A stretch of DNA of 21,074 bases, taken from contig JBHLRQ010000052.1 of assembly GCA_048882385.1 (NCBI GenBank), positions 1 to 21,074 on the forward strand. Direction: 5' to 3'. Shown here piece after piece: positions 37 through 19,893 of the stretch. The stretch is from Candidatus Thorarchaeota archaeon. Its GTDB lineage: Archaea; Asgardarchaeota; Thorarchaeia; Thorarchaeales; Thorarchaeaceae. The notes beneath the pieces are model-generated. The model did no database searches. It saw only the letters and a program-made list of their open reading frames with translations, and had not been told where the DNA came from. Both the position numbers and the translations under genes were made by a program. Positions within the stretch are counted from its first letter, which is position 1. Each line of letters starts with the position of its first letter.

Positions 37-894
37 TTGACTCTGAGAGTTGCGATTCCTGACACTGCTTTGACTGATTGTTCAGACCTACGACAGAAAA
101 CCGAGAAAGCTGGTTCAATTGCTCGAGCACTAGCAGTGTTTCGTGTGGATGCTGTATATATCTACGATACAGGGGCCCTCACTGCTAGTAGAAAACGAGA
201 TGCGGATCTACTGACAAAGTTACTCAGGTTCATGGACACACCACAATACCTCAGAAAAAGGATATTTCCAAAATCTCCCTCTCTCAAATATGCAGGTATT
301 CTTCCTCCGCTGAGAATCAGAAGCCATCCTTTGGAGAGCACTAAGTCTGAACTTCAGGAAGGTGCTGTAAGGTGGGGTGTTCAAGTTCGGGTTGGTAAGA
401 TTGACTTGGGCCTCAATAGTCACGTCAACTATCCCAAGACAATAAGTGAACGTGATCCGACATTATTCCGAATTATGAAGACATCGCCCCATATTACACT
501 CGAAGTTATTGATCGAGATGATGTCGAAGAATATTGGGGATTCAAAGTCGAACGTGTTCGTGAGCTCAGTAGTCTGCTGAAAGAGGCTGAGGATACTACT
601 AGAATCGGTTTTTCGAGGAATGCACCCCTCTTTCATAGAATTGAATCAGATCTGAAATCGACAATTGCAGGGACTCAGTCTATACTAGCAATATTCGGTG
701 GTCCAGGTCATGGTATCCTTGAGGTCTTTAAAGAAGATCGAGAAACCGTCAAGTCAAACATTGATTTCTGGGTAAATACAATTCCTGATCAAGGCACCGA
801 AACGGTACGTCTTAATGAAGCAATACTAGTTAGTCTTGGTGTTCTAAACAGCTCGTTTGGACAACTTATTGCTAAACCCGGCTATTATGAATGA
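37..894 (+). CDS. SPOUT-family RNA methyltransferase (DUF171 / MTH1 / SPOUT1-like)
   Basis: Family motifs seen: 'VAIPD', 'IARALAVFRVD', 'TPQYLRK', 'LKYAGILPPL' and the C-terminal knot 'WVNTIPDQGTETVRLNEA'. TTG start follows an AGGAGG SD. This family usually lies directly upstream of archaeal rpl3. Confidence 0.9.
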   Translation: MTLRVAIPDTALTDCSDLRQKTEKAGSIARALAVFRVDAVYIYDTGALTASRKRDADLLTKLLRFMDTPQYLRKRIFPKSPSLKYAGILPPLRIRSHPLESTKSELQEGAVRWGVQVRVGKIDLGLNSHVNYPKTISERDPTLFRIMKTSPHITLEVIDRDDVEEYWGFKVERVRELSSLLKEAEDTTRIGFSRNAPLFHRIESDLKSTIAGTQSILAIFGGPGHGILEVFKEDRETVKSNIDFWVNTIPDQGTETVRLNEAILVSLGVLNSSFGQLIAKPGYYE

Positions 895-916
895 AACGCT
901 AATGCATGCATGCGTG

Positions 917-964
917 ACCTTTATAGAAGAAATTGGATAGATGAATTGGAAGATTCAGTGAGGA
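917..964 (+). promoter_or_regulatory. Putative TATA box and SD for the glycyl radical enzyme gene
   Basis: TTTATAG at 920-926, about 50 nt upstream of ATG 972. GTGAGGA SD at 958-964. Short direct repeats lie between them. Confidence 0.45.
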
Positions 965-971
965 TTCATTG

Positions 972-3338
972 ATGCAGTCTGAAAGGGTGAAGAAGCTTCG
1001 CGACCAAAGTGTAGGAACAAAGCCCTACATCTCATCTGAGAGAGCTGAACTCCTTACAGATTTCTACCAGAGTGGGGGTGCAGACATGGTTTCAACACCT
1101 GTTGCAAGAGCTCTGGCGTTCAAACATATTCTGGAAAATAAGACAATCTGCATCAATGATGGAGAGTTAATTGTTGGAGAGAGAGGTCCAGCACCACGGG
1201 CATCACCCACATATCCAGAACTATGTTGTCATTCACTCAACGATCTTGATATCGCAAACTCTCGAGAAAGAACTCCGTTTCTGTTGAGTGAATCTGTTCG
1301 AAAAACCTACCGCGATGAGATTATACCCTTTTGGACTGGAAGGACAATGCGTGAACGAGTGTTCGAAGCAATGTCTGATGAGTGGATGGCTGCATTCGAT
1401 GCTGGTGTGTTCACAGAGTTCATGGAGCAAAGAGCTCCTGGACATGCCATCTTGGACGACAAAATCTATCACAAAGGTTTCTTAGACTTCATTGATGATA
1501 TCGAGAAACATCTGTCCAATCTCGATTATCATAACGATTCTGAAGCATACGACAAGGAACAGGAACTGAAAGCGATGAAGATTGCTGCTGAAGCAGTCAT
1601 TTTCTTTGCTAGACGTCATGCAGATATGGCACGAGAACTTGTTGAAGTTGAAACTGATTCTAGAAGGAAAGAAGAACTCCTTCGTATTGCAGAGATATGT
1701 GAACACGTCCCTGCACATGCACCTCGTAACTTCTGGGAGGCATTACAATCATATTGGTTTGTTCATCTTGGTGTCATCATTGAACTCAATGTCTGGGACA
1801 GTTTCAACCCAGGCAGGCTAGATCTGAACCTTTTCCCGTTCTATGAGAGAGAACTCAGAGATGGAACTCCCACAAGAGATTATGCAAAGGAATTGCTACA
1901 GTGTTTCTGGATTAAGTTCAATAACCAGCCTGCTCCCCTTAAGGTTTCAATCACAGAACAACAGAGTGGAACCTATCAGGACTTTGCTTTAATTAACACT
2001 GGTGGTCTAACACAGGATGGCAAAGATGCTGTTAATGAGTTGTCATACCTGATTCTTGAAGTATGTAATGAGATGCGATTGATTCAACCAAGTGTATGCA
2101 TCCAACTGAGTAATGAAAATCCAGAACAGTTTCTGATGAGTGCAGTTGATGTTGTCAAAGAGGGTTTTGGACAACCATCGATGTTCAATACTGATGTTAT
2201 ATTGAAAGAGTTTGTCCGAGCTGGAAAGTCTATCGAAGATGCCAGGACTGGTGGTCCTAGTGGTTGTGTTACAATCAGTGCTTTTGGGAAAGAGAGCTGT
2301 ATTCTGACTGGCTACTGCAATTGGCCAAAGATACTAGAAATCACACTAAACAACGGAATAGATCCTCGAACTAGTGAGAAAGTGGGTATTGAAACTGGTA
2401 ATCCTATTGATTTCAAATCATTTGATGAACTATTTTCAGCATATAAGAAACAGTTGGCATATTTCATTGATCTCAAAATCAAGGGTAACAACATCATCGA
2501 GAGACTCTATGCAAGATACATGCCCGCTCCCTTCATGTCGTTACTCTTTGATGATTGTATAGCAAAGGGGAAGGACTACCACGATGGAGGGCCCCGCTAC
2601 AACTCCACATATATCCAAGGAGTTGGAATGGGGACTATCTCTGACTCACTCTCAGCAATCAAGTATCACATTTTTGATAAAACTGAGTTCACCATGGAGG
2701 AGCTATTGAAGGGACTGAGAACTGATTTTAAAGACAACGAAGTTATGAGAATGACCCTTCTCAACAAGACTCCAAAGTATGGAAATGATGATGACTATGC
2801 AGACAAACAAGCAAAAGATGTGTTTAATGCATATTTTGACCTCATAGATGGTCGTCCTAATACAAAGGGTGGCGAGTACCGTGTGAACCTGCTACCTACT
2901 ACAGTCCACGTCTACTTTGGACAGATGACTGGTGCAACACCCGATGGTCGAACAGCTAGCTCCCCATTGTCCGATGGTATCTCTCCGAGTCATGGTGCTG
3001 ACACAAAAGGTCCTACTGCAGTCATCAAATCAGTAGCGAAAATTGATCACTGGAAGACTGGAGGAACACTTCTTAATCAGAAATTCATGCCAGAGGTTCT
3101 GGCCGATGCTGAGGGGCGAAGGAAACTCGGTGACCTTGTGAGGACCTACTTCAAACTTGGTGGGCATCATATTCAGTTCAATGTCATCAAGGCGGAAACT
3201 CTCAGAAACGCTCAAGCCCACCCTGAGAACTATCAGAACCTCATTGTCAGAGTTGCTGGTTACTCAGACTACTTTGTGAATATTGGGAAGGACCTCCAGA
3301 ATGAGATTCTTGCACGGACAGAACAGAATCGATTCTGA
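972..3338 (+). CDS. Glycyl radical enzyme, trans-4-hydroxy-L-proline dehydratase (HypD/PflD)-like, with atypical CVT active-site motif
   Basis: C-terminal glycyl radical motif RVAGYS (Gly codon 3258-3260) and Cys loop SGCVT (Cys codon 2265-2267). HypD-type blocks 'FTEFMEQRAPGH', 'ELNVWDSF', 'KFNNQPAP', 'TYQDFA', 'LPTTVH'. About 788 aa. ORF track starts at TTG 969; ATG 972 fits the SD spacing. Confidence 0.9.
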   Translation: MQSERVKKLRDQSVGTKPYISSERAELLTDFYQSGGADMVSTPVARALAFKHILENKTICINDGELIVGERGPAPRASPTYPELCCHSLNDLDIANSRERTPFLLSESVRKTYRDEIIPFWTGRTMRERVFEAMSDEWMAAFDAGVFTEFMEQRAPGHAILDDKIYHKGFLDFIDDIEKHLSNLDYHNDSEAYDKEQELKAMKIAAEAVIFFARRHADMARELVEVETDSRRKEELLRIAEICEHVPAHAPRNFWEALQSYWFVHLGVIIELNVWDSFNPGRLDLNLFPFYERELRDGTPTRDYAKELLQCFWIKFNNQPAPLKVSITEQQSGTYQDFALINTGGLTQDGKDAVNELSYLILEVCNEMRLIQPSVCIQLSNENPEQFLMSAVDVVKEGFGQPSMFNTDVILKEFVRAGKSIEDARTGGPSGCVTISAFGKESCILTGYCNWPKILEITLNNGIDPRTSEKVGIETGNPIDFKSFDELFSAYKKQLAYFIDLKIKGNNIIERLYARYMPAPFMSLLFDDCIAKGKDYHDGGPRYNSTYIQGVGMGTISDSLSAIKYHIFDKTEFTMEELLKGLRTDFKDNEVMRMTLLNKTPKYGNDDDYADKQAKDVFNAYFDLIDGRPNTKGGEYRVNLLPTTVHVYFGQMTGATPDGRTASSPLSDGISPSHGADTKGPTAVIKSVAKIDHWKTGGTLLNQKFMPEVLADAEGRRKLGDLVRTYFKLGGHHIQFNVIKAETLRNAQAHPENYQNLIVRVAGYSDYFVNIGKDLQNEILARTEQNRF

Positions 3339-3411
3339 TTTGGAAATTGAAATGCAGGTTCTACGAAAGAATGAAAACAATCCGTAACGAATGTATTCCT
3401 GTGGTCGGGAT

Positions 3412-4764
3412 ATGGAAGACGCACAGGTGAATACTGGGTGGTCCCTTAGAATCAATGGTATCTTTCCAAGAGTTATTCTCTGGCTAGTGATTTCAATTGT
3501 TGTTGATCTTCCAGGGCTCTATTCTGTATCAGGGTCAGGATGGAATTCTACTAGTATCCTAAGACAATCCTTGGGAGAGATTTCCAGTACCGCTTTTCTT
3601 GGGGTCTTGTTCTTTCTTGGTGCAAATCTCTTTCTATCATCTCAATTCGTTAGAACTTATGAAAGAAAACAACAACTGGTAAAGCCTTTCATCATGTTTC
3701 TATTATTGACAGCTCTGTATCTCGTATTTCATTCAATCATTATATTCAATACTTTCACACAATTTGGAGAAGTTGGTGCTGAGATCAATCTGGCATTTGT
3801 CTACGGAGCACTTCTTGCTGTACCTATAGTTTCTTTCATTTTTTGCTCACTGGCTGCTGGACTTGCAATCATAGTTGATGACTGGAGAAGTAGCACAATA
3901 GCAGGTTGCAGTCTATTTCTTGTAGTAAATCTCTTTCTTGGAATGCCTCACGCTCCTGCACTCTACCCTGAGATATCACTCTTCAGTCCCTCTCATTTCT
4001 ATCGAGCAGTAATGCTAGTACTTTCTGGTCTCTTTTCCCTAGTACCACTATCTATTCAAAATTGGGCTGGACTGTATTCACTCAATTATATAATCGCACC
4101 ATTGATTGTCTACATCACTCTATCTTTGATTTCAGTTTGGGCCATAATACAGTACGGAAAAGAGAATCAGCAACGACGACAATTATTACACAGATCTGAT
4201 ACAATCCAGGAGACTGAACAAGAACAGAGGGAAGAGACGAGACTTAGAAATCGACTAAAGGCACGAAGGAGAGCTGTGTTGGTGGGCTTTTTGGTATTCA
4301 GCTTGTTAATACCTATCAGTGGATATTCATACACATCAAGTAGAGCATATGACATACGCACGGTAATCTATGAAGACGTGCTTCAACCAACGAACGGTGA
4401 ACTATTCTACGAATCATTCACCACCGAGGTACTCCCTCCAGATATCACTCAGTGGATTGGATTTCCACTAGACATCATTGAATGGGGGCAAAGTCCAAGT
4501 TCAATTACATTTGAGTACGTGTTCAGAGCTGGATTCATACAAGATTTCTTCAATATGAATGAAAGTAGCCGTTGGCGGTTATCGCGTAGTATTATCCTAG
4601 AAGCTGACCAGACACAGTACTTGTACAATACCTATTCTGGACTTGATGAGCTTGGCGGACCGCATTACTGGGTGTTTCGGTTCCGTAGTGATGATTGGAC
4701 TTCTGAACAAGTCGGACTAAGAATAAGAATCTCGGTGGTTCTTAGAGAAATGCCAGAGATATAA
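3412..4764 (+). CDS. Hypothetical multi-pass membrane protein (about 6 TM ABC-2-permease-like N-part, charged linker, 7th TM, soluble C-terminal domain)
   Basis: ORF of 450-457 aa (track start 3391; ATG 3412 follows GTGGT). Hydrophobic helices, an 'SLFSPSHFY' segment resembling ABC-2 permeases, an E/Q/R-rich helix, then a TM and a roughly 140-aa hydrophilic domain. Confidence 0.6.
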   Translation: MEDAQVNTGWSLRINGIFPRVILWLVISIVVDLPGLYSVSGSGWNSTSILRQSLGEISSTAFLGVLFFLGANLFLSSQFVRTYERKQQLVKPFIMFLLLTALYLVFHSIIIFNTFTQFGEVGAEINLAFVYGALLAVPIVSFIFCSLAAGLAIIVDDWRSSTIAGCSLFLVVNLFLGMPHAPALYPEISLFSPSHFYRAVMLVLSGLFSLVPLSIQNWAGLYSLNYIIAPLIVYITLSLISVWAIIQYGKENQQRRQLLHRSDTIQETEQEQREETRLRNRLKARRRAVLVGFLVFSLLIPISGYSYTSSRAYDIRTVIYEDVLQPTNGELFYESFTTEVLPPDITQWIGFPLDIIEWGQSPSSITFEYVFRAGFIQDFFNMNESSRWRLSRSIILEADQTQYLYNTYSGLDELGGPHYWVFRFRSDDWTSEQVGLRIRISVVLREMPEI

Positions 4765-4814
4765 TCAACCAAAACTAACGACGTACTTCATTCTGGCCAT
4801 CATCTCTTCTTCTT

Positions 4815-5810
4815 TTACCCTTTATCCTTAGATTTCAATAGAGGATTAATTATATAGAGTACTCCAAAGGTCAACCACAACACCGACCACATCACTCGCG
4901 CAAAAAAGCTTGGGTAAAAGTATGTATAGATGAAGGTGTCCATGGGAGATAGTTGCATAAAAGCAGGCTCTGGTTCGATGAAGAACCATGAGTAATCCAA
5001 AGGAATGGGAAAGAGGGAACATCCAGTAATGTTCCAATAGTATATCCCTGCAGATGGACTCACTTTTGCAGCTACTAAATTCAGATGCATCTGATACACA
5101 ATTGGGAGGTATACGATGAAGAGGGCAATGAGTATCACACTTCTGATTGGATGAGTCTTCAGATTATCTATAATCACCCCTGTTCTACTTCCAAAAGAAG
5201 GAGTAGTAGGTCCTTGCGAAGTATCCCTTGTTCCCTCTTGAGATTTCCACCATGACTTTTCTTTCTTCTCGTCATTTTCATCAATCCACTCTGTACTCGA
5301 TTCGGCCTCTGTCTTTATCTTGTGGGAAAATCTCACTAAGGCATACCCCACAATGAATTGAATCGGGATTGGCCCAACATATGCAAAGATCATCCATTGA
5401 ACAACATAGAACATCCCATAAAGACCAAGGATTATTGGAGGAACGAGTGAGAGATATCCTACAATCATGACACTTCTTCTAGAAATATCATTGATATGGT
5501 ATCGGATCACTTGAGCTGCAAAGAGGATATTCAAGAACCAAATTGGAAATGTAATGAAGAGAATGGTGGGATTCAGAGGAACTAGCCCATAACCCTCCAC
5601 ACCAATTCCCATTGGATTGGAGTGAAGGGGAGCAGGAAAATATGACCAGAGAACTGCTATGACCATTAGGTCAACATAATATCCTTCTAGGTAACTATAG
5701 CCGCCACCCAGTGATACAACCGAAACAGGACACAACAGAGTGACTGCTACCATTAAAATGAATATTAAGTCCGTTGAATGTTCGATAACTTTGTCTTTGA
5801 TCCCTACCAC
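4815..5810 (-). CDS. Hypothetical membrane protein, two hydrophobic modules joined by a hydrophilic linker
   Basis: 331-aa ORF with about 5 TM segments in the N-part and 2 in the C-part. GTG start preceded by a purine-rich GAGG/AGGA SD-like stretch. No recognisable family motif. Confidence 0.6.
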   Translation of the reverse strand: MVGIKDKVIEHSTDLIFILMVAVTLLCPVSVVSLGGGYSYLEGYYVDLMVIAVLWSYFPAPLHSNPMGIGVEGYGLVPLNPTILFITFPIWFLNILFAAQVIRYHINDISRRSVMIVGYLSLVPPIILGLYGMFYVVQWMIFAYVGPIPIQFIVGYALVRFSHKIKTEAESSTEWIDENDEKKEKSWWKSQEGTRDTSQGPTTPSFGSRTGVIIDNLKTHPIRSVILIALFIVYLPIVYQMHLNLVAAKVSPSAGIYYWNITGCSLFPIPLDYSWFFIEPEPAFMQLSPMDTFIYTYFYPSFFARVMWSVLWLTFGVLYIINPLLKSKDKG

Positions 5811-6042
5811 TCCTTTTGCCTCAATTTCTCCATGATTGTGAGAATTGGTATGCTAGCACCTTGCTAATACACTTTCCCAATTCCTTCTTGAGTCTAAAAA
5901 AGAAGTTCAATCATTTTGATGAATCTGTGAAGTTATGTTATAGAGCAATGTTAAAAAGGATAGTAAAAAGGCTCGTGACAAGTTAGTACGAATAGCCCCA
6001 GTCTAGAGGCCGTTCGATACGGATATTATTGTGGTGTTTGAT

Positions 6043-7050
6043 TTGGCACACAGAAAGAAGAACGCACCAAGGCGTGGAAGTCTAGCATACTTACCACGAG
6101 GTAGAGCTTCTAAATTCGTGCCCCGTATCAAGAATTGGCCTGAGTACAATGACTCGGCTGCAAAACTACTTGGTTTCATCGGCTATAAAGCCGGTATGAC
6201 ACATGCGGTGATGACTATCGATAATCCAAACAGTCCCTTCAAGGGGCAAGAAACCGTAGTTCCGGTCACTGTCATCGATACTCCACCGATAAGACCATTC
6301 TCAATTCGTGGTTATGAAGCCACGCCCTATGGTCTAAAACTAGTTAGTGAGGTTCTTGCAGAAACTCTCGCAGAGGACTTACGGAAAGCCATGCCCTTTC
6401 CCAAAGACTATGATCATGAAGCCAAGATGAAAGAGTTCGAGGAGAAACTCGACTCACTTGCCGAGATTAGGATGCTAATCCACACTCAGCCAAGACTTGC
6501 TGGAGTATCGAAGAAGAAGCCTGACATTACAGAGTACAAAGTAGGCGCCCCCAGTGTGATAGAAGCCTTTGAATATGCTCAGAGTGTTCTAGGTACAGAT
6601 GTGCGTGTCGCTGATATCCTCAATGAGGGGATTCTAGTTGATAGCATTGCTGTGACAAAAGGACACGGTTTTCAGGGTCCTGTACGTCGCTGGGGTGTAC
6701 GAATTCTTCAACACAAATCCCGAAAGACAAAGCGTGGTGTGGGTTGTATTGGTCCATGGACTCCTACTAACATCAGGTATTCCGTACCTCGTCCAGGACA
6801 AACTGGTTTTCACACTCGGACCAGCTTTAACAATAAAGTCATGAAGATGGGTGAGCGTGGTGAAGAAATTACACCCTCCGGAGGTTTCGTAAACTACGGA
6901 GTGATACGTGGCGACTACATAATGCTTCACGGATCTATCCCTGGTACAGTGAAGAGACCAGTGAGATTCAGATTCGCTATTCGTCCAAAGAAGAAACACG
7001 TGGATGCACCCTCTCCGGTGAGCTATATCAGCACATCCTCAAAGCAGTAG
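6043..7050 (+). CDS. rpl3: 50S ribosomal protein uL3
   Basis: 'HRKKNAPRRGSLAYLPR', 'GYKAGMTH', 'TKGHGFQGPVRRWG', 'GQTGFHTRT', 'GGFVNYG'. Probable TTG start at 6043 after GGTG SD (track start 6031). Confidence 0.98.
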   Translation: MAHRKKNAPRRGSLAYLPRGRASKFVPRIKNWPEYNDSAAKLLGFIGYKAGMTHAVMTIDNPNSPFKGQETVVPVTVIDTPPIRPFSIRGYEATPYGLKLVSEVLAETLAEDLRKAMPFPKDYDHEAKMKEFEEKLDSLAEIRMLIHTQPRLAGVSKKKPDITEYKVGAPSVIEAFEYAQSVLGTDVRVADILNEGILVDSIAVTKGHGFQGPVRRWGVRILQHKSRKTKRGVGCIGPWTPTNIRYSVPRPGQTGFHTRTSFNNKVMKMGERGEEITPSGGFVNYGVIRGDYIMLHGSIPGTVKRPVRFRFAIRPKKKHVDAPSPVSYISTSSKQ

Positions 7051-7063
7051 GAGATGATTATCT

Positions 7064-7855
7064 ATGGCAAGTGTGAAAGCATTTACATTGAAGGGCAAGG
7101 TCATCAAAGAGAGGGTAACACTACCTTCCCATTTTGACACACCCTACCGCCCGGATGTTATTAAGAGAGCAGTCTTAGCAGTACAATCACGAAAACGGCA
7201 ACCCCACGGAGTTGACGAACTAGCTGGAAAGCGGAACACTGCCCAGAGCTGGCAGACTGGACATGGTAGGTCAAGAATGCCACGTATAAAGGGAAGTGGT
7301 ACAAGTGCAGCCAACAAGGCTGGATTTGCTCCTGGCACAGTTGGAGGTCGTGTTGCACATCCTCCTGAAGCACGAAAAGTACTCGTTGAGCGTATCAATA
7401 CAAAGGAAAATCGACTAGCAATTCGTTCAGCCATCGCTGCTTCCGCAAATCCTGAATTTGTCAAGGCACGTGGTCATAAGATAGAAAATATTCCTCAGAT
7501 ACCGATGGTAGTAAGTGACAAGTTAGAATCCATGTCCACTACAAAGGAAGTCTTTGAGGCATTGATTCTTTTGGGTTTAGGAGATGACCTTGATAGAGCT
7601 AGTAATGGTCGTAATATCAGGGCTGGAAAAGGGAAGATGCGTGGCCGAAAGATGAAGACTCCCAAGTCCCTACTCATAGTAGTAGGTACAGACTCTGGAA
7701 TTGGAAAGGCAGCTCGAAATCTTCCTGGAGTGGATATCACAGAAGTTCACGGGCTAAACGCTGAACTGTTGGCTCCTGGAACACATCCCGGTCGCCTAGT
7801 GGTCTGGACAAGATCCGCCATAGACAGGCTTCAGAAGGAGAACCTATTCATCTGA
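7064..7855 (+). CDS. rpl4: 50S ribosomal protein uL4
   Basis: 'RPDVIKRAV', 'GGRVAHPP', 'RAGKGKMRGR', 'LAPGTHPGRLVVWT'. Directly follows rpl3. Confidence 0.98.
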   Translation: MASVKAFTLKGKVIKERVTLPSHFDTPYRPDVIKRAVLAVQSRKRQPHGVDELAGKRNTAQSWQTGHGRSRMPRIKGSGTSAANKAGFAPGTVGGRVAHPPEARKVLVERINTKENRLAIRSAIAASANPEFVKARGHKIENIPQIPMVVSDKLESMSTTKEVFEALILLGLGDDLDRASNGRNIRAGKGKMRGRKMKTPKSLLIVVGTDSGIGKAARNLPGVDITEVHGLNAELLAPGTHPGRLVVWTRSAIDRLQKENLFI

Positions 7856-7865
7856 GGTGAGTGTG

Positions 7866-8129
7866 ATGAGAGATCCAAATGAAATCATTATCCGCCCCGT
7901 TGTCACAGAAGCCAGTCTTGAGGCTGTGGATGAGGAGAACAAGCTCATCTTTTATGTTGTCAGAACAGCGAACAAGAACACAATCAGGTGGGCAGTAGAG
8001 TCCCTATACGAGGTTGTTGTTGAAAAAGTCAATACTATGATAATGCCCGATGGAAAGAAGAAGGCATTTGTCAAACTGGCACCAGAATATAGTGCCGCAG
8101 AGGTTGCAACAAGCCTCGGGATATTCTAA
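7866..8129 (+). CDS. rpl23: 50S ribosomal protein uL23
   Basis: 'PVVTE', 'NKLIFYV', 'VNTMI..GKKKAFVKL', 'A..LGIF'. GAGGTGA SD at 7854-7860 favours ATG 7866 (track start GTG 7857). Confidence 0.97.
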   Translation: MRDPNEIIIRPVVTEASLEAVDEENKLIFYVVRTANKNTIRWAVESLYEVVVEKVNTMIMPDGKKKAFVKLAPEYSAAEVATSLGIF

Positions 8130-8141
8130 GGAGGTCTTTGA

Positions 8142-8861
8142 ATGGGTAGACGAATTCTGGTTCAGCGAAAAGGTCGAGGAACAACCCAGTGGAGGTCTCC
8201 ACGCCACAAGAAGATTGCACCAGCAAGACATCCCAAATGGGCTCCAAACAAGACCTATGTGGGTACTATTGTAAATCTTCATCATGAGTCTGGTAGAGGT
8301 GCCCCTCTTGCTGAGATTCGATATGAAGGTGAGTCAAAGATTCACTTCATGGTCGCTCCTGAAGGTGCTCAGGTTGGTCAAATTGTAGAGTGTGGAGAAG
8401 AGGCATCATTAGCAAACGGTAACACACTGATCCTCGAACATATTCCTGAAGGTACTCCTGTCTATAACATAGAAGGTAGTCCTGGTGATGGAGGAAAATA
8501 TGTCAAGTCATCAGGTCTTGCAGCCACAATTGTGTCAATTGACAAATCAAAGGCTATGGTCAGATTACCTAGTGGTAGGCAAAAAGCTTTCAGTCCAAGA
8601 TGCCGAGCCACAATCGGTATTGTAGCTGGTGGTGGACGCCAAGAGAAACCCTTCTTGAAGGCTGGTGCAGTCTGGCATCATACTCGAGGAAAAGCAAGAA
8701 AATGGCCTGTTGTTCGAGGTGCTGCAATGAATGCTGCATCACATCCACATGGCGGTGGTTCTCATCAATCACCTGGTAGACCAACTACTGTGAGTAGACA
8801 TGCTCCACCTGGACGTAAGGTGGGCAATATTGCGGCTAGAAGAACTGGTCGCAAGAAGTAA
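8142..8861 (+). CDS. rpl2: 50S ribosomal protein uL2
   Basis: 'MGRRILVQRKGRG', 'GRGAPLA', 'WPVVRGAAMNAASHPHGGG', 'PPGRKVGNIAARRTGR'. GGAGGT SD. Confidence 0.98.
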   Translation: MGRRILVQRKGRGTTQWRSPRHKKIAPARHPKWAPNKTYVGTIVNLHHESGRGAPLAEIRYEGESKIHFMVAPEGAQVGQIVECGEEASLANGNTLILEHIPEGTPVYNIEGSPGDGGKYVKSSGLAATIVSIDKSKAMVRLPSGRQKAFSPRCRATIGIVAGGGRQEKPFLKAGAVWHHTRGKARKWPVVRGAAMNAASHPHGGGSHQSPGRPTTVSRHAPPGRKVGNIAARRTGRKK

Positions 8862-8972: not shown

Positions 8973-9155
8973 ATGCGTCTCATAGCTGTGCACTTGCCCG
9001 AGAAGATTGTTGAAGACATTCAACGCCTAGTGGACAAGGGACTCTACCCCAACAGATCTGAAGCGATTCGAAATGCAATCAGAGACCTGTTAAAACGTGA
9101 GTTGTGGGAGTCCACCTTAAACTCCAGTGGAAGGATGAGTGAGGTTATCGGATAA
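8973..9155 (+). CDS. cdrS: Ribbon-helix-helix transcription factor CdrS (cell-division regulator, CopG/Arc/MetJ fold)
   Basis: 'MRLIAVHLP...LVDKGLYPNRSEAIRNAIRDLL' matches the CdrS pattern. ATG 8973 follows an AGAGGA SD (track start 8901 is too long). Its stop overlaps the ftsZ start (TAATG). Confidence 0.88.
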   Translation: MRLIAVHLPEKIVEDIQRLVDKGLYPNRSEAIRNAIRDLLKRELWESTLNSSGRMSEVIG

Positions 9156-10414
9156 TGAAATCATTGATTGATGCCGCACGAGAACACAGTCGTGGTGAAC
9201 GAAGTCAATCTTCAGTTCGCGATATGGGACAAGCACGCATTGTTGTTGTGGGCTGCGGTGGTGCAGGTAATAACACAGTGAAACGGCTCATGACTATTGG
9301 TATCCAAGGCGCTGAGTGCATAGCAATAAACACCGACCGTCAACATCTCTCAGTTACAACAGCACACAGAAAACTCTTGATTGGTGAACGAATTACTCGT
9401 GGATTAGGCGCTGGTGGTTACCCACATGTGGGTAGAGCAGCCGCAGAAGAATCAACTGGCCAATTGACAGAACTTCTACGGGACGCTGATCTAGTTTTCA
9501 TTGCTGCTGGAATGGGTGGAGGTACTGGTACTGGTAGTGCACCAGTTGTTGCTGAGATTGCTAAGAATAGTGATGCAATAGTTGTGGGGGTCATTACAAT
9601 GCCTTTCAACCTTGAGAGAACACGTATTGACAAGGCAAAAACTGGTCTGGCACGTTTGCAGGAGAATGTAGACACTGCAGTTGTTATTGACAATCAAAAG
9701 TTGATGGAACTAGTTCCTGACTTGCCCCTTGAAGAGGCATTTGGAGTTGCAGATGAAGTATTAGCAAATATGGTAAAGGGAATCACTGAAACCATAACAA
9801 TGCCTAGCTTGATCAACCTTGACTATGCTGATGTTCGATCCATCATATGTAATGGTGGGGTTGCCCTAGTTGGGCTTGGAGAGGCTACTGGTGCCGATCG
9901 TGCAAATGAAGCAATAAAGAATGCTCTAAACAGCCCCCTCCTAGAAGTTGAATGGAGTGGTGCAACAGGAGCATTGATTCATATCACCGGTGGACCTGAT
10001 ATGAGTCTGGCTGAATCAAACAAGGTTGGTGAGTTGGTTTCAGAAAAGATGAGTCCCAATGCCAATGTCATATGGGGCGCTAGAGTTGACCCAAGGCTCA
10101 GTGGTGTTTTGCGAGTGATGCTAATCCTTACTGGTGTGAAAAGTCCTCAGTTACTTCCACGATCAAAGGAAGAGCGAAGTTTCTCATCAACAACCAAGCG
10201 TCTTGCTGAATTTGGTATAATTGGCTCACAGTCCACAATGATTGGTTCAAAAGAAGCACGAGCCCGGGCTTTTGGCAAGATCGCTGATTCACCAGAACGA
10301 ACATGGGAAGATCGGCTGAAACCATTAGAACGAACACTTGCCCGAAAGTCACCAAAGGAAAAAGAGATCAAAAAGAGAGAGATTGAGGAGCTTGGTTTAC
10401 GAAGACTTCTCTAA
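9155..10414 (+). CDS. ftsZ: Cell division protein FtsZ, FtsZ2 subfamily
   Basis: 'VGCGGAGNN', 'INTD', tubulin signature 'GMGGGTGTG', T7 loop '[10 protein letters not shown]' (FtsZ2 type), 'IWGA'. Coupled to cdrS. Confidence 0.96.
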
Positions 10415-12748: not shown

Positions 12749-12862
12749 CTGAATGTGAAATGATGTACCGCCAAAATACACTGACGATCCTTTCCAACAG
12801 TTAGCTCCCTAGGGAATCGGTTATTAGTCTCTCATTCAGCAGCTGGATTGGGTGTCATTCCA

Positions 12863-13693
12863 ATGGTGACTCAGAAGCATTTCGCTAGGCACTATCTTCG
12901 TGAAGAGGTCTTACCTTCCGTCTACTGTCCGGGCTGCGGAGCTGGAGAGGTCAGTTCAGCCTTTCTGAAAGCAGTTGGAGACTTGGGTCATGAGGACTTG
13001 AGTAAGTTTGCATTTGTTTCTGGAATCGGGTGCAGTGCCTGGATTCCATCACCACACTTCAAGGCTGACACATTACATACCACTCATGGCAGAGCCATTG
13101 CATTTGCAACAGGTCTTAAACTGGCTCGACCAGAGCTCAAAGTAATCGTGATAAGTGGGGATGGTGATCTTGCAGCAATCGGTGGAAATCATCTCATTCA
13201 TGCAGCAAGACGCAATATGGACTTGACTGTAATCTGTGTGAACAACTACATCTATGGAATGACTGGCGGACAAGTTGGTCCTACTACTTTTACTGGAGAC
13301 CGAACTACTACATCACCCTACGGGAATCCCGAGCGACCATTTGATCTGGCCCGACTAGTCGCAGCGGCAGGGGCTAACTACGTAGCGAGATGGACAACTG
13401 CACATCCAATACAAGCAGCTCGATCTATTAGAACCGCTATTGAACGTAGAGGTTTCTCATTCGTTGAAATGATTTCTCAATGCCCTACGGCATATGGAAG
13501 AAGGACTCAAGCTGGAAGTCCTCCTGAAATGATTAAGTGGTTCAAGAACCTCCCTGTTCGTAAGAAAGATGATCCTGTTGACCATAAGGTTCCCACAAAA
13601 GAAGGAATGGACCTCGGCGTTTTTGCAGATCGAGATGAAACCCCTTTCACTGAAACTCTGCAGTTAACAATGAGCAAAATTCAGGAGAAATAG
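12863..13693 (+). CDS. korB: 2-oxoacid:ferredoxin oxidoreductase beta subunit (KorB-like, TPP-binding)
   Basis: 'YCPGCG', 'VSGIGCS', 'HTTHGRA', TPP motif 'GDGD...IGGNH...NN', 'YGMTGGQ', 'SQCPT'. ATG 12863 follows GGTG (track start 12848). Confidence 0.9.
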   Translation: MVTQKHFARHYLREEVLPSVYCPGCGAGEVSSAFLKAVGDLGHEDLSKFAFVSGIGCSAWIPSPHFKADTLHTTHGRAIAFATGLKLARPELKVIVISGDGDLAAIGGNHLIHAARRNMDLTVICVNNYIYGMTGGQVGPTTFTGDRTTTSPYGNPERPFDLARLVAAAGANYVARWTTAHPIQAARSIRTAIERRGFSFVEMISQCPTAYGRRTQAGSPPEMIKWFKNLPVRKKDDPVDHKVPTKEGMDLGVFADRDETPFTETLQLTMSKIQEK

Positions 13694-13696
13694 ACT

Positions 13697-14224
13697 ATGA
13701 GGACCGAGATACGCATTGCAGGAACCGGTGGTATGGGTGTAGTATTAGCTGGCGTGGTTCTTGGTCATGCCGCGGTAGTCTATAGTGGACTCGAGGCAGT
13801 TCAGAGTCAGAGCTACGGGGCAGAGGCTCGTGGAACAGCTGCAAAGAGCGAAGTAATCATTAGTGACCAACCCATCAAGTATCCCAAGGTTCGCAAGTCA
13901 GACTATCTCGTCGTCATGTCCCAGAAAGCTCTAGATCTGTATCTGAAAGACGCCAAGAAGAGCAGTGTTGTCATTGTTGATCCCGATTTAGCAAAAATCG
14001 AGAAAATGAAACATGACTATGAGATAGTTGAGGTTCACGCGATGAAGACTGCTGACAAGCTGGGTCTCAGAATGGTTTCTAATATGGTGATGTTGGGTGC
14101 ACTCGTTAAGAAGTCTGGTTTGTTTCCTTTAGAGAACTTAGAGAATTCAGTATCTGATTTAATCGGTGCAAAAACACTCCAATTAGATATTGATGCGATC
14201 AGAGCTGGGGGTACTCTGGTTTAA
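13697..14224 (+). CDS. korC: 2-oxoacid:ferredoxin oxidoreductase gamma subunit (KorC-like)
   Basis: 'IRIAGTGGMGVVLAG', 'QSYGAEARG', 'NMVMLGA'. Starts 3 nt after the beta-subunit gene. Confidence 0.9.
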   Translation: MRTEIRIAGTGGMGVVLAGVVLGHAAVVYSGLEAVQSQSYGAEARGTAAKSEVIISDQPIKYPKVRKSDYLVVMSQKALDLYLKDAKKSSVVIVDPDLAKIEKMKHDYEIVEVHAMKTADKLGLRMVSNMVMLGALVKKSGLFPLENLENSVSDLIGAKTLQLDIDAIRAGGTLV

Positions 14225-14499
14225 CCACCATGAATCAGCGGTAGAACGATTAGGACATCACCGTCATTAAGCTCAGTTTCAAGTCCGCCTGTGAGACCGA
14301 TATCCGAATCGTTACACAAAATCAGCGCATCACGATCCATTGTTTCAGGACTCGACCAAACATCATACACAATCCTGTCCGTTTCTATTAATTTAGTCAA
14401 TGCTTCAAAGAGACTACATCCATCACTGCAGTCTACGACTATCTTTCCATCATGAAGTTGTTTCGCTAGCGGTCCACGAAACTGAACTATGATTTTCAT
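14221..14499 (-). CDS. Ubiquitin-fold sulfur carrier / modifier (MoaD/ThiS/SAMP family, Urm1-like)
   Basis: 92 aa beta-grasp pattern, 'LILCNDSDI...LETELNDGDVLIVLPLIHGG' with free C-terminal GG. Its stop overlaps the korC stop (TTAA 14221-14224). Confidence 0.88.
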   Translation of the reverse strand: MKIIVQFRGPLAKQLHDGKIVVDCSDGCSLFEALTKLIETDRIVYDVWSSPETMDRDALILCNDSDIGLTGGLETELNDGDVLIVLPLIHGG

Positions 14500-14599
14500 T
14501 ATTATCGACCACTCGTTGAGGTAGAGTGATTATTTGATAAAGGACTTGATTTGTGCGTTAGTATTAAGTTCTATATACAGCGTTGCTTGAGATGAGAAC

Positions 14600-16120
14600 A
14601 TGACTGCGGATTGTGAATCTGAGGTTGAACCATCGATCGAAGTTGTTTCAAGCAGATACGCCAGAGTATTCGGAATCGAACGAGCAACTGCTGAAACAGT
14701 CCGTCTAGTCAAGATTCTATCTGTCTTGTTGCCTTCCTTTGCTGCAAGTTTTCAAATCAGCACAACTTTCTGGATGATCTACATCGCAGAGTCCCTTGGC
14801 AACGGTGACTACTTTGCAGGTCTCACATTTGTTGGATTGCTCGTTGTTCTCCAAATGGCAATTCAGACTTCCCTTGATTATCCCACAGGTGCTGTGGGCG
14901 ACTGGATTGGCCAACGATACGTAATAGCTTCAGCCCTTCTCTGCTATTCTGTGGCTTTCTATCTGTCCTCGATGATTGCCGCTGATACACCTGCGCCACT
15001 ATGGATTTACGTGGCAATCTATGCACTCTTTGGACTGGGCTCTTCACAGGAGAGCGGAGCTTTCAACGCGTGGTTTGATAACAACTACAGAGTTGCCATG
15101 CCACATGACAAGGACAGGAAACAATATGGAGTATTCCAGGGTCGGCTTGGAATGGTCTGGCAGGTGTCATCTACTCTTGTGCTTCTACCTGGGTCTTGGC
15201 TTGCATTCCTTTATGGAGAAACTTGGGTCTTCAGTCTGCAGGCAGTCTTTGCAGTATTCCTTGCCCTCGTCGTCTTCAGACTTGTAAGGGACCTGCCTGG
15301 AGTCAGAGATGAGAGTGAACGCCCGTTTCTTCGAGAGTATGGTTCACTTCTAAAGGATGGCTTTAGATTTCTCTGGTCCAGCCGTTTTGTCACATTAATC
15401 ATGCTGGGAGAGGTCGTGATGTTCAGTATCGGACCTGTATGGTGGAACCTCATGCTCTTCCCACTCTACTTCAGTCTGCTAGTCACACAGGTCGCAGTAT
15501 CAGCATTTCGTACGCTTGTGTTTGTCCCGCAGGCAATCGCAAATGAGAGAAGTGGAGTATTAGCGAAGCGATTCGAACCCAAGACGTGGATACCTCGATT
15601 TAGGATTCTCCAATTCATGGGCGTTGTATTCTATCTGGCTTTGGCTGCAATAGTGCATTTCTTCCCAACCATTCCTGCTGGAACAGATCCCTCGACAGTC
15701 CAATTCCTGACAATACTAATACCCTTCACGAATCTCCCGTTGATTGAGATCCCTGTTCAGACTCTTGTTCCAGTTGTCTTGCTGTTCATCGTATTTGTGG
15801 GACTAAACATGTTCGGAGCGATTGCTGGAATCCTCACTCAACGGGTCATGCTTGATGTGATTCCAAACCGTATCCGTAACTCGATGTACTCGCTTCAACC
15901 CACTCTCGTTATGCTAATATCGATGCCTCTCATTGCATTCTATGGTTGGCTGATTCCACTTTCAGGATTCACTCTACCCTTTCTTCTCAGCGCAGTGATT
16001 TCACTTCTGTCTGTAGTGATGATATGGATGGCGTTCAATAATCCGATACCAAAAGCTGATGAACTGGTTCCAGCGACTGAAAAAGAGAAGGAAGAGGTCC
16101 AAGAAATGGACGTCACATAG
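14600..16120 (+). CDS. Major facilitator superfamily transporter
   Basis: Motif A-like 'DYPTGAVGDWIGQR', 'GLGSSQESGA..AW', about 12 TM, 'IPNRIRNSMYS' in the C-terminal half. Confidence 0.85.
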   Translation: MTADCESEVEPSIEVVSSRYARVFGIERATAETVRLVKILSVLLPSFAASFQISTTFWMIYIAESLGNGDYFAGLTFVGLLVVLQMAIQTSLDYPTGAVGDWIGQRYVIASALLCYSVAFYLSSMIAADTPAPLWIYVAIYALFGLGSSQESGAFNAWFDNNYRVAMPHDKDRKQYGVFQGRLGMVWQVSSTLVLLPGSWLAFLYGETWVFSLQAVFAVFLALVVFRLVRDLPGVRDESERPFLREYGSLLKDGFRFLWSSRFVTLIMLGEVVMFSIGPVWWNLMLFPLYFSLLVTQVAVSAFRTLVFVPQAIANERSGVLAKRFEPKTWIPRFRILQFMGVVFYLALAAIVHFFPTIPAGTDPSTVQFLTILIPFTNLPLIEIPVQTLVPVVLLFIVFVGLNMFGAIAGILTQRVMLDVIPNRIRNSMYSLQPTLVMLISMPLIAFYGWLIPLSGFTLPFLLSAVISLLSVVMIWMAFNNPIPKADELVPATEKEKEEVQEMDVT

Positions 16121-16125
16121 GACCT

Positions 16126-17091
16126 CTACTTTGACATCGTCTTCTCTATTGACTTCTTGAGAACCTCTGCATTCAGCTCTCCCGCATGGAATGTCTTACC
16201 ACTCTCAATGTGGGTCAATGTTATCTCTGCAGGACTGAACAGAAGTGGGTCTACCTTATAGAAGTCGTTCCCTACACTCTTAAACAAGTCATAGAATGGC
16301 TCGCCGTACTGTTCAGACGATGATGATGGGACTTGTTTAACAATATCCTCCAAATCCTTCTCGCCATCTCTCACAAAGTAGAAAGTCCGACCACCGTAGA
16401 GGATGCAGTCGTTTGTGACACCCATTGCTCTGGCATCTTTCTTTGCTACAGGCGCGACTGGAGCCACACCATACCCCGACCTTACACGATCCAGATCAAA
16501 TTTGATTTCATGTAATTTGTGCATTCCTACCTCAACGACTCTGGCTGAAACCTGTATCGAACCCACCAGACATGCCGTGGGGGCCAGAAGACAGTAGAGA
16601 TCAGAGGTAGCAATTCCACACTTGTCCGCGATATACTGAGCAACATTCTCTGGCGGCGTTTCTCTTGTTTCGAGTAGAATCACACCAACTTTGGCATCAT
16701 CTGCATAGTCAAGATGCTTGTACAGCTTTTTCTCAACCCGGGCAAGTGCCCTTGCTGGCCCTGAACCCATTGCGAAGTAACCTTCTTCGTTGATTACCCA
16801 GCCTGCGTACTGTGAACCCATGCATGCTATCTTGGGGTGGTCAGTACTCACAACAACAGCATCTAGATCCATGTTTCCAATATGCATCTTAGTATGTCTT
16901 ACAACTCCGTATCCTCCCAGACATATCTCGCTCACTAGTCTTCCGAGCTCTTCAGTTCCTTTGACATCAATACCTGTATCAATGACAGTTGTTCCGTTCT
17001 TTAGTTCGCTCACTGTACAGTCCAAATCATCCTTTTGATTCATTATCTCCTTGGTAATCTCAAATGCGCCTTCATTTACACTGATTCTCAA
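16126..17091 (-). CDS. mch: Methenyltetrahydromethanopterin cyclohydrolase
   Basis: 'ISVNE', 'ACMGSQYAGW', 'MGSGPARALA', 'GSIQVSARVVE', 'TNDCILYGG', 'DFYKVDPLLFSPA'. TTG start with GGTGAGAGGA SD. Confidence 0.95.
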   Translation of the reverse strand: MRISVNEGAFEITKEIMNQKDDLDCTVSELKNGTTVIDTGIDVKGTEELGRLVSEICLGGYGVVRHTKMHIGNMDLDAVVVSTDHPKIACMGSQYAGWVINEEGYFAMGSGPARALARVEKKLYKHLDYADDAKVGVILLETRETPPENVAQYIADKCGIATSDLYCLLAPTACLVGSIQVSARVVEVGMHKLHEIKFDLDRVRSGYGVAPVAPVAKKDARAMGVTNDCILYGGRTFYFVRDGEKDLEDIVKQVPSSSSEQYGEPFYDLFKSVGNDFYKVDPLLFSPAEITLTHIESGKTFHAGELNAEVLKKSIEKTMSK

Positions 17092-17102
17092 GTCCTCTCA
17101 CC

Positions 17103-17957
17103 TCATTTCAAGTGCTGGTTCTTAGAAGCACGAACGAAGATTTCCTCGCCCGGACTTGCCTCTGAAAAGTCCCCTATGTACTTGATCCATTTCTCTGAAA
17201 TATGGACACTCTCTGATAGAAAGTCTGGTCTGCGGTCCTTAAGGTATCTAAGATAGTAGTTGATGAATTCTCGTTCAGAACTGCCACTGAACTTGTAGGT
17301 CGGAAACATTGATTCAAGTTTTCCAAGACAGAAGATCATGCCTTTGGTGGCTTGCACACCCACACGCTCTGCCATGTCGCCTACAACAATAACAGTTCCG
17401 CCCATCATGCGAATAGCCGATTGTGGTCCCACGTCACCCTTGACGGCAAGGAAGCCTTTTCGCATATGTGAAGCCATCTCGCGTCCTACGTTACCAGCTA
17501 CATAGACGCGTCCACCTTTCATACCATCTGTACTGCCACGATAGCCTGAGCAAAGATAGTCCCCCGCATCACCCTCGATCTGGATGTTTCCGCCTTCCAT
17601 CTCTACTGCAGCCCAATCACCAACTGACCCTTTCACATGGATACGTCCAGCAATCATCTCTGCTCCGAGATACATTCCAGTGTCCCCTTCAACAATGATT
17701 CTTCCTCCGTTCATCTCCTTCCCAATCATCTTGACCTTCTTGAGATCGCCCTTGACAATGATTTCGGTTTCATCAGGTGTTGGGCCACTCTCTCCACTGA
17801 TATCAAAGAAATCCTTGAGTTGAACGATCTGATTGCCTTGATGAAGGGGCAATTCCCCAATCTTCTTGACAGTTTTTCCTGCAAAATGGGTAGGAGTAAT
17901 AGAATCCGCTTCTAGAGGTAATTCAGGTGTTTTCCTAAGTGACAAGGTCACTGTCAT
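17103..17957 (-). CDS. fwdC: Formylmethanofuran dehydrogenase subunit C (GXGXG beta-helix)
   Basis: 'PLEADSITP' and repeated 'G..M.GG.I.V.G' units, 'YRGSTDGMKGG', 'PTYKF', 'GD'. GGAGGA SD favours ATG 17957 (track start 17999). Confidence 0.92.
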   Translation of the reverse strand: MTVTLSLRKTPELPLEADSITPTHFAGKTVKKIGELPLHQGNQIVQLKDFFDISGESGPTPDETEIIVKGDLKKVKMIGKEMNGGRIIVEGDTGMYLGAEMIAGRIHVKGSVGDWAAVEMEGGNIQIEGDAGDYLCSGYRGSTDGMKGGRVYVAGNVGREMASHMRKGFLAVKGDVGPQSAIRMMGGTVIVVGDMAERVGVQATKGMIFCLGKLESMFPTYKFSGSSEREFINYYLRYLKDRRPDFLSESVHISEKWIKYIGDFSEASPGEEIFVRASKNQHLK

Positions 17958-18083
17958 GAGTCCATCCTCCGTGTTTTTTTGGAACGTAATCCCCGTCATA
18001 AATCCTTTTGCAGTTCACAAACGTGTGTAGGAAAAAAGAAAAGGGCGGTACAGCTTCGGAATTTCACCAGTGGGTGCGTTCTC

Positions 18084-18980
18084 ATGGAGATAAATGGAGT
18101 ACCAATAGAAGACACGTTTGCTGAAGCTTTTAGTATGCACATGAATCGAACAATAATCACAGCCTATAGTGAAGAATGGGCACGAATCACAGCTCTCGAA
18201 GCCACCGGTTTTGGTACATCAGTAATTATGGCTCCAGCAGAGGCTGGAATTGAGTACATTATGTCCCCTGATGAAACTCCTGATGGACGTCCGGGAGTTC
18301 GTGTGGTCTTTGCTGTTGGGTCTAAGAAAAAGCTTGAACCACAGCTCTTAGCCCGTCTTGGACAGTGTGTGTTGACAAGCCCGACTGCATCCGCATTTGA
18401 CGATACTCCGAAAGCCAAGGACCTATACGAGATAGGAAAGAAGGTTGCTATGTTTGGTGATGGTTTTCAGACCAAAAAAGGTCCCATTGATGGAAGAGTC
18501 CTGTGGCTAATCCCAAGGATGAGTGGGACCTGTGTTATGCAGAATATGTTTGGTCGGGTGAAGGGAGTTGCAGGTGGAAACATCATCTACTGCTGTGAAG
18601 ACGTCGAGAGCGGCATGAACAGTGGTATGGCAGCTGTGAAGGCAATCGAAAAAGTGGAAGGTGCATACACCCCATTCCCTGGAGGTCTTGTGGGTTCAGG
18701 GTCAAAACCATCATCAAAGTACAAGGTCTTGTTTGCTTCAACAAATGAGAAGTTCTGTCCCTCATTGAGAGCTCTTGTTCCAAACACTCTTGTTCCAAAA
18801 GGCAGTGAGTTCGTTCAGGAGATTGTTATTAATGGCCTGACAGAGGCATCTGTTGCTCAAGGGATGAAAGTGGCCATTGAGGAAGTCTGCAAACATCCTG
18901 GTATTACTAAGATGACTGCAGGCAACTATGGAGGAAAGCTTGGAGAGTATCAGATCAAACTGCATGACCTGTTTGCATAG
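18084..18980 (+). CDS. ftr: Formylmethanofuran:tetrahydromethanopterin N-formyltransferase
   Basis: 'MEINGVPIEDTFAEAF', 'ATGFGTSVIM.PAEAGIE', 'TPDGRPG', 'FGDGF', 'PFPGGLVGSGSK', 'EIVING', 'AGNYGGKLG'. True start ATG 18084 (the track start 17979 overlaps the fwdC 5' region). Confidence 0.96.
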   Translation: MEINGVPIEDTFAEAFSMHMNRTIITAYSEEWARITALEATGFGTSVIMAPAEAGIEYIMSPDETPDGRPGVRVVFAVGSKKKLEPQLLARLGQCVLTSPTASAFDDTPKAKDLYEIGKKVAMFGDGFQTKKGPIDGRVLWLIPRMSGTCVMQNMFGRVKGVAGGNIIYCCEDVESGMNSGMAAVKAIEKVEGAYTPFPGGLVGSGSKPSSKYKVLFASTNEKFCPSLRALVPNTLVPKGSEFVQEIVINGLTEASVAQGMKVAIEEVCKHPGITKMTAGNYGGKLGEYQIKLHDLFA

Positions 18981-19832: not shown

Positions 19833-19893
19833 CCTCCATACATTTTAGATACCCAAGAGATTATCACTTCTTCGATATTGAAATGCAAGTGAT

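Follow-up and report, generated by a model that had tools for sequence, protein, structure and literature searches.

A HypD-family gene with threonine at the CXE position

The window analysed here, a 21,074-nucleotide stretch of contig JBHLRQ010000052.1 (positions 1 to 21,074; assembly GCA_048882385.1) from a Candidatus Thorarchaeota archaeon, contains the gene for a glycyl radical enzyme (GRE) of the HypD family in which the CXE motif's glutamate is replaced by threonine. The coding sequence occupies 969–3338 on the forward strand and gives 789 residues from a TTG start at 969, or 788 from the ATG at 972, the latter matching the length of identical database entries. Its product aligns end to end with HypD from C. 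difficile (chain 6vxc_A; 1057.6 bits; query residues 5–787, chain residues 27–808), and its Cys loop aligns with that of HypD (...GGTSGCVETGCFGKEAYVLTGY) without a gap, which places Thr435 of the window protein at the position of HypD Glu436. The replacement that had originally been read from the letters of this DNA is borne out by both the translation and this alignment. Residue numbers below are those of HypD, which equal the numbering of the window reading frame plus one, unless the window protein is named.

The Cys loop, GGPSGCVTISAFGKESCILTGY (2250–2315, forward strand, as for all features of the gene), holds the catalytic Cys433 of the window protein (HypD Cys434; codon TGT, 2265–2267) and Thr435 (codon ACA, 2271–2273). 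It also carries Pro430, Ser437 and Cys444 (HypD positions 431, 438 and 445), part of the signature of the non-Tyr445 branch of the HypD family, here named subfamily II. Cys444 (2298–2300), which stands where HypD has Tyr445, is the cleanest marker of this subfamily, and the catalytic cysteine is invariant in all 228 of its aligned sequences. The stretch His159-Ala160-Ile161 (1443–1451) begins with the counterpart of the histidine that partners Glu436 in HypD (PMC7077986, in excerpt), followed by two subfamily-specific residues at which canonical HypD has Thr-Val. Val275-Trp276-Asp277 (1791–1799) corresponds to HypD Thr276, which is changed, and to Trp277 and the proposed acid/base Asp278. Between 1962 and 1985, Gln332-Ser333 and Gln337-Asp338-Phe339 keep HypD Ser334, Asp339 and Phe340, with glutamine at both Glu333 and Thr338. 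The glycyl radical loop, RVAGYS, lies at 3249–3266, the radical glycine being residue 764 of the window protein.

The protein has the sequence features of the GRE superfamily of the PFL2/glycerol dehydratase type, with matches to the Pfam families PFL-like (PF02901, 768.7 bits) and Gly_radical (PF01228, 132.8 bits). It also scores above the cut-offs of the NCBIfam HypD equivalog NF043068 (1250.3 bits; cut-off 1100) and of TIGR01774 (687.7 bits; cut-off 678.2), and an alignment-based AlphaFold2 model reached a mean pLDDT of 92.7 and a pTM of 0.92. Apart from the CXE glutamate, 13 residues with catalytic or binding roles in HypD are kept: F152, R156, H160, W277, D278, K326, S334, D339, F340, C434, Y450, T645 and G765. 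All the HypD equivalents that the original prediction had listed as retained are present, although the retained histidine listed as 647 is HypD 648. The change from FAN to FAL that it had also counted as specific is less so, since Leu342 occurs in many canonical Asgard HypDs as well. Judged by its sequence, the window gene most likely encodes a functional, full-length GRE.

Subfamily II and the recurrent exchange of threonine and glutamate

In a FastTree phylogeny of 252 sequences (trees in this work come from FastTree or quick searches), subfamily II is monophyletic with a local support of 100, and a single Tyr445/non-Tyr change accounts for it; the subfamily is nested within the canonical HypDs, as sister to the canonical Asgard group. 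Position 445 is Cys, Val or Thr in all 228 subfamily sequences and Tyr in all 21 canonical ones. Besides the loop residue P431, the signature comprises T127, F144, A161, I162, E331, Q333, S438, C445 and H539; among the replacements are Tyr445 by Cys or Val, Gly438 by Ser, Thr161 by Ala, Glu333 by Gln and Asn539 by His, together with a new Glu at 331. Throughout, the 13 other catalytic and binding residues of HypD are invariant (228/228). When the Asgard sequences are considered separately, 5 of the 17 clade-specific positions lie no more than two residues from a known catalytic or binding site (hypergeometric P = 0.0016), proximity here meaning adjacency along the sequence.

Position 436 holds either threonine (174 sequences) or glutamate (54) and nothing else within the 228, a ratio that is biased by the way in which the sequences were found. 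A minimum of eight Thr/Glu changes is required on the tree, and the minimum is still eight when the 57 Thr sequences that had been selected by a loop pattern (see below) are removed; parsimony slightly prefers Thr as the root state (8 versus 10 steps). Both Glu lineages of the Thorarchaeia (loci L026/L027 and L039) branch from within Thr lineages, and a single Glu clade among Thorarchaeia is rejected by the approximately unbiased (AU) test (p = 9e-5), the tested group having been chosen after inspection of the first tree. No alignment column was found to co-vary consistently with Thr/Glu across the independent switches. In both Thorarchaeial Glu lineages (L026, L027, L039; P0051, P0076, P0080) position 411 has changed from Val, Ile or Thr to Met, a residue present there in 0 of 46 Thr-bearing Asgard sequences; as a general partner of the Glu state, V411M was rejected, being found in none of six bacterial Glu clades. 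From this pattern of substitution the CXE glutamate seems less indispensable than thought, and optional within subfamily II.

The Thr form is not confined to one assembly. Among the best 120 database matches to the window protein (73–100% identity, mostly labelled Thorarchaeota), 117 carry CVT and three CVE. A search of 400 genomes of the Asgard phylum, from which 90 HypD-family matches were fetched and eight partial matches of at least 67% identity were left out, fell into two groups: the GGPSGC loop is present in all 50 matches with at least 67% identity (47 Thr, 3 Glu), and canonical CVE with Tyr445 in all 40 with at most 63%. The clade of CVT proteins with co-varying residues that had been envisaged at the outset therefore exists across genomes.

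Its reach beyond the Asgard archaea was gauged by scanning a single genome of each prokaryotic species for DNA that could encode G-G-P-S-G-C-V-T-[IV]-x-x-F-G, a degenerate pattern that recognizes Thr forms only. At least 119 of these genomes, under about 17 phylum labels, have a match. Among the matches listed, the record labels are Planctomycetota (51), Thorarchaeota (15), Bathyarchaeota (10), Bipolaricaulota (8) and Thermotogota (7), with further matches in Armatimonadota, Ignavibacteriota, Hermodarchaeota, Heimdallarchaeota, Synergistota, Zixibacteria, Acidobacteriota, Chloroflexota and Gemmatimonadota, among others. All 80 listed loci encode proteins 59–86% identical to the window protein, and the loop was re-found in 38 of 39 further loci. 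The cultured Anaerohalosphaera lusitana (P0331) is among the carriers of CVT. An unbiased sample of Planctomycetota had a HypD-family gene in 10 of 301 genomes, two with GGPS...CVT...KESC (one of them the centre of that genome search), three with GGPS...CVE...KESC and five canonical. Of 120 database proteins nearest to a Glu form, 73 have Thr and 47 Glu, and all have Cys445. On the evidence as a whole, subfamily II is ancient and has spread horizontally across phyla.

The threonine codon and selection on the gene

Assembled contigs from three sequencing runs belonging to three studies (X3, X11 and X13) span window positions 2268–2281 and agree at the codon 2271–2273; one of these runs may be the source sample, and contigs of a further run (X6) do not cover the codon. 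Across the 50 Asgard subfamily loci the site is encoded by ACA (20), ACG (11), ACC (11) and ACT (5), and by Glu codons in the remaining three. A miscall, which the original prediction had already held to be unlikely, is thus made more so by the agreement of the runs and by the four codons in use among relatives. The gene is under strong purifying selection: the median pairwise dN/dS (Nei–Gojobori) is 0.057 (range 0.04–0.10; 31 pairs), against 0.092 for canonical Asgard HypD (26 pairs).

Genomic neighbourhoods

The order archease, SPOUT RNA methyltransferase, GRE and ribosomal proteins L3-L4-L2, all on one strand, is kept across Thorarchaeial genera (window 37–8861; loci L013–L041, L102–L105 and L112). 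The GRE gene there lies between the SPOUT methyltransferase gene upstream (23 of 29 kin loci) and the L3 gene downstream (26 of 29). Such a housekeeping setting is not usual for an enzyme of catabolism, and the expression of the gene may be constitutive. Thorarchaeial subfamily loci are without an adjacent activase gene, the exception being the Glu-bearing locus L113.

At 32 CVT loci from outside the Thorarchaeia, a ferredoxin-type activase gene adjoins most of the GRE genes. An M2/M3-like metallopeptidase gene is adjacent in seven, a PutP-like sodium symporter in three and an Xaa-Pro aminopeptidase/prolidase in three; a POT peptide transporter, a proline-racemase-family gene (L132) and an AcnX/OCD pair (L163) were found once each. 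These neighbourhoods point to the context expected for the use of proline or hydroxyproline from peptides. Three Glu-form loci of Planctomycetota have an activase gene and no such peptidases, so the context gives no direct link between the Thr and Glu forms. The HypD-family complement of the host genomes is uniform: in 29 CVT genomes all 30 HypD-family matches are CVT and none canonical, and among the Asgard matches listed no genome has both one of at least 67% and one of at most 63% identity. The two types were therefore never together in the genomes examined, which is easier to reconcile with a single role common to both than with a division of labour.

Some of these loci are unusual in themselves. 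In a member of the Pirellulales (L137:2812-6819) a CVT-type GRE and an M2/M3-like peptidase share one frame of 1335 residues, either a fusion or the result of a lost stop codon. In a planctomycetote (L280:3301-5994) the activase upstream of a CVT-type GRE has 897 residues, with an N-terminal extension of ~600 residues that has no family match. Activases of subfamily II loci, like that of the window's genome, have ferredoxin-type domains; those beside canonical Asgard HypD (L106–L110) are 267–271 residues long, with no Fer4 Pfam match. In two Asgard genomes, ribonucleotide reductase genes that include intein and homing-endonuclease domains also lie near canonical HypD (L106:12311-16960 and L109:2718-6164).

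In the window itself, two reading frames lie between the GRE and L3 genes: 3391–4764 (forward strand), for a predicted membrane protein of 457 residues, and 4815–5810 (reverse strand), for 331 residues. Neither belongs to a Pfam or NCBIfam family or has a match in the 29 kin loci; in those loci L3 comes after the GRE, no further than about 150–300 bases away. The GC content of 3391–5810 is 0.385–0.41, with 0.43–0.47 in the surroundings, and the segment looks like a genome-specific insertion. The membrane protein was considered as a conserved partner of the GRE and rejected, having a match in 0 of 29 kin loci. Elsewhere the window carries FtsZ (9155–10414), an Lsm protein and, at 12848–20844, 2-oxoacid:ferredoxin oxidoreductase subunits, an MFS transporter and two genes of the tetrahydromethanopterin pathway, Mch (16126–17091, reverse strand) and Ftr (17979–18980, forward strand), content that fits a Thorarchaeial genome of the Wood–Ljungdahl type.

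GREs and a candidate activase in the host genome

The window's genome has three GRE genes, of which the one in the window is the sole member of the HypD family. Of the other two (contigs C3 and C57; L002 and L003), one is nearest to glycerol dehydratase, in a locus with an aminotransferase and a PfkB kinase, and one to Archaeoglobus PFL2. One protein scores above the cut-off of the TIGR02494 activase family (317.8 versus 174.35); it is encoded on contig C16 (L004) and has ferredoxin-type domains. Since its gene is unlinked to all three GRE genes, any pairing of this activase with the window GRE would be presumptive.

Comparison with characterized glycyl radical enzymes

In the HypD–hydroxyproline structure, as described in the excerpted text of Backman et al. 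2020 (PMC7077986), Glu436 forms hydrogen bonds with the C4 hydroxyl, the leaving group (2.7 Å), and with His160 (2.5 Å). Asp278 holds the ring amine, as does Asp339 via water, and Asp278 is the proposed base and later acid. The original prediction had put Glu436 in contact with the ring amine, wrongly in view of these published contacts. According to the same excerpt, the C. difficile variants E436Q (Table 2), H160Q, D278N, D339N, S334A and F340A are inactive. The consulted part of a 2026 review (PMC13450708) states that CXE is kept by all six C–O eliminases and by the isomerases, including HpyG and HpzG. A non-exhaustive literature search yielded no paper on a HypD-family clade without the glutamate and, for HypD in these lineages, gave only a mention of ‘several archaeal genomes’ (PMC6219649).

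Against this background, the window protein resembles C. difficile HypD (PDB 6VXC/6VXE; NF043068) in its full-length homology and in the identity of all 13 residues from F152 to G765. It differs in having Thr at Glu436, in the replacement of Tyr445, Gly438, Thr161, Glu333 and Asn539, and in the lack of an adjacent gene for an activase or for 1-pyrroline-5-carboxylate (P5C) reductase, a linkage that is common, though not universal, in Clostridia. With canonical Asgard HypD it shares family and phylum, the two groups being sisters on the tree, and several of those host families are likewise without proC; by contrast, all 40 canonical Asgard sequences have CVE with Tyr445, and in 5 of 6 of their loci a short radical SAM activase (267–271 residues) is encoded directly upstream. 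Among GRE 1,2-eliminases at large (glycerol and propanediol dehydratases, CutC and IslA), the PFL2-type fold, the Cys and Gly loops and the conserved His160 are shared, but the CXE glutamate that in those enzymes acts as base on the substrate hydroxyl (PMC13450708, in part) is Thr in the window protein.

Within the GREs as a whole, the HypD family forms a single 50%-identity cluster, which includes the window protein. Because threonine replaces the CXE glutamate, the protein cannot be filed as a proven HypD; it belongs by sequence to the HypD family, probably works like HypD, and is best called a HypD-family protein.

Proposed function of subfamily II

What subfamily II acts on, and how, is judged here from sequence and context. 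We consider it somewhat the likelier case that its members dehydrate 4-hydroxyproline to P5C, with His160 and the threonine hydroxyl replacing the His–Glu pair. Three observations favour this: Glu and Thr interchange, the pocket is otherwise identical, and no genome examined has both types. The carboxylate of the substrate would be bound by the kept residues Ser334, Tyr450, Thr645, Arg156 and Lys326, and the ring held by Phe152, Trp277 and Phe340, while Asp278 and Asp339, also kept, would serve in deprotonation of the amine and protonation of the leaving group. The side that faces the C4 hydroxyl appears to have been rebuilt (445, 438, 161, 333 and 331, with 436 mostly Thr). In the proposed reaction the thiyl radical would abstract a hydrogen from C5, Asp278 would serve first as base and then as acid, and the departure of water from C4 would yield P5C in the manner of HypD; the C4 hydroxyl would be positioned by His160 and the threonine hydroxyl, perhaps via a water molecule, instead of by the His160–Glu436 pair. 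The new GRE chemistry that had initially been suggested for this gene finds no support in at least eight Thr/Glu interchanges within one subfamily without consistent compensation, or in neighbourhoods that suggest catabolism of proline and hydroxyproline peptides.

Several points weigh against dehydration of 4-hydroxyproline by the Thr form. The inactivity of E436Q in HypD (PMC7077986, in excerpt), together with the presence of CXE in all the known eliminases and isomerases covered by the consulted part of the review (PMC13450708), means that the Thr form might catalyse a different reaction. Each switch between Thr and Glu requires two base changes, and neither an Ala nor a Lys intermediate occurs in the 228 sequences; such a strict dichotomy suits a pair of selected states better than it does free drift, and the two could differ in function. 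The subfamily changes also remove two acids and several hydroxyls beside catalytic residues, as judged by adjacency in sequence. Finally, a Pfam scan found neither an activase nor a P5C reductase gene in the window, and P5C reductase (TIGR00112) was found neither in the window's genome (95% complete) nor in any of 85 genomes of its family.

The last of these points weighs little, because in the 400-genome phylum search TIGR00112 was likewise not found in families f4, f8 and f13, which have canonical HypD, nor in f14; in family f22 it turned up in 87 of 135 genomes, and in f11 in 15 of 22. As a discriminator between the subfamilies, P5C reductase was accordingly rejected, being absent from both subfamily II and canonical families. 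An aldehyde dehydrogenase on contig C28 was considered as a P5C dehydrogenase and rejected, as it resembles methylmalonate-semialdehyde dehydrogenase and lies beside PreA. The genome also has two genes of the ornithine cyclodeaminase family (L117 and L118), which may make proline in place of P5C reductase.

The most serious alternative, doubtful though we consider it, is that subfamily II, or the Thr form alone, uses a proline-like substrate with a difference at C4, for example cis-4-hydroxy-L-proline or another stereoisomer, or a compound that is 4-O-substituted or otherwise has a different leaving group, in which case the exchange of Thr and Glu would be a specificity switch. The predicted location of the changes speaks for such a substrate, since they appear to gather on the hydroxyl-facing side (436, 437, 438, 445, 161–162, 276, 333 and 338) and to leave the carboxylate and amine sides untouched. 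So do the strict dichotomy, with its at least eight two-base switches and no intermediates, and the loss of activity in HypD E436Q (PMC7077986, in excerpt), and the proline-racemase/hydroxyproline-epimerase-family neighbour at L132 and the AcnX neighbour at L163, which resembles cis-3-hydroxyproline dehydratase, hint at isomer metabolism. However, Glu members with the full canonical catalytic set nest among Thr members without a second change that consistently goes with them, the canonical type and subfamily II are never found together in the genomes examined, and no neighbouring gene indicates a candidate substrate. A bolder version, which we regard as slightly more doubtful still, is that position 436 is a natural one-residue switch with two selected settings, each tuned to its own C4 leaving group or isomer and flipped at least eight times by archaea and bacteria of sediments, and that the Thr form would be a Glu-less eliminase acting on a substrate new to the superfamily.

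A radical reaction other than 1,2-elimination, as in other GRE clades without the glutamate, appears unlikely. Among 150 diverse GRE representatives, 108 have CxE, 38 another residue and four a gap at this site, so replacement of the glutamate is common in uncharacterized clades, where it usually goes with other chemistry. Those clades, however, have just 35–40% identity and nothing of the HypD pocket in common, whereas the window protein has retained the 13 other residues of the pocket and falls within the HypD family.

Still less probable is the N-substituted substrate of the original prediction, N-methyl-hydroxyproline or hydroxyproline betaine, for which loss of the glutamate was to open the nitrogen side. 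What speaks for it is that relatives of HypD act on N-methyl-hydroxyprolines (PMC13450708, in part). HpyG and HpzG are, like HypD, glycyl radical dehydratases of hydroxyproline derivatives that abstract hydrogen from C5 (same source), but they are distant from the window protein (506 and 483 bits), and their solved chains (8id1 and 8iof) keep the glutamate (GCVETN) and have Ala or Ser at 278 and Met at 339. The window protein reverses this pattern, with Asp at both positions and no glutamate, which leaves an N-substituted substrate unsupported. Moreover, Glu436 faces the hydroxyl and not the nitrogen (PMC7077986, in excerpt), and Asp278 and Asp339, the ligands of the amine, do not vary in any of the 228 subfamily sequences.

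Hardly tenable is the view of the gene as an inactive or decaying paralogue, or of its threonine as a sequencing error: nothing beyond the missing glutamate and the lack of an adjacent activase speaks for it, and against it stand an open, full-length frame with intact radical glycine and catalytic cysteine, a dN/dS of ~0.06, four synonymous Thr codons across relatives, the identical codon in contigs from three studies, and the status of the gene as the only one of its family in the genome.

Implications for the HypD family

The CXE glutamate has been taken as a hallmark of eliminases and isomerases among the GREs. Here, a large branch of natural HypD-family sequences, spanning Thorarchaeia, Bathyarchaeia, Planctomycetota, Bipolaricaulota, Thermotogota and others, is mostly without it. 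Annotation pipelines name all subfamily II proteins trans-4-hydroxy-L-proline dehydratase, a presumptive assignment, and reconstructions of metabolism in sediment anaerobes and in Asgard archaea therefore depend on a sequence-based call. The natural Thr/Glu pairs within the subfamily are ready-made comparisons of both states. If the glutamate is dispensable in the background of subfamily II, the proposed mechanism of HypD would shift toward Asp278 and His160; if threonine instead marks a different substrate, the branch would hold new chemistry.

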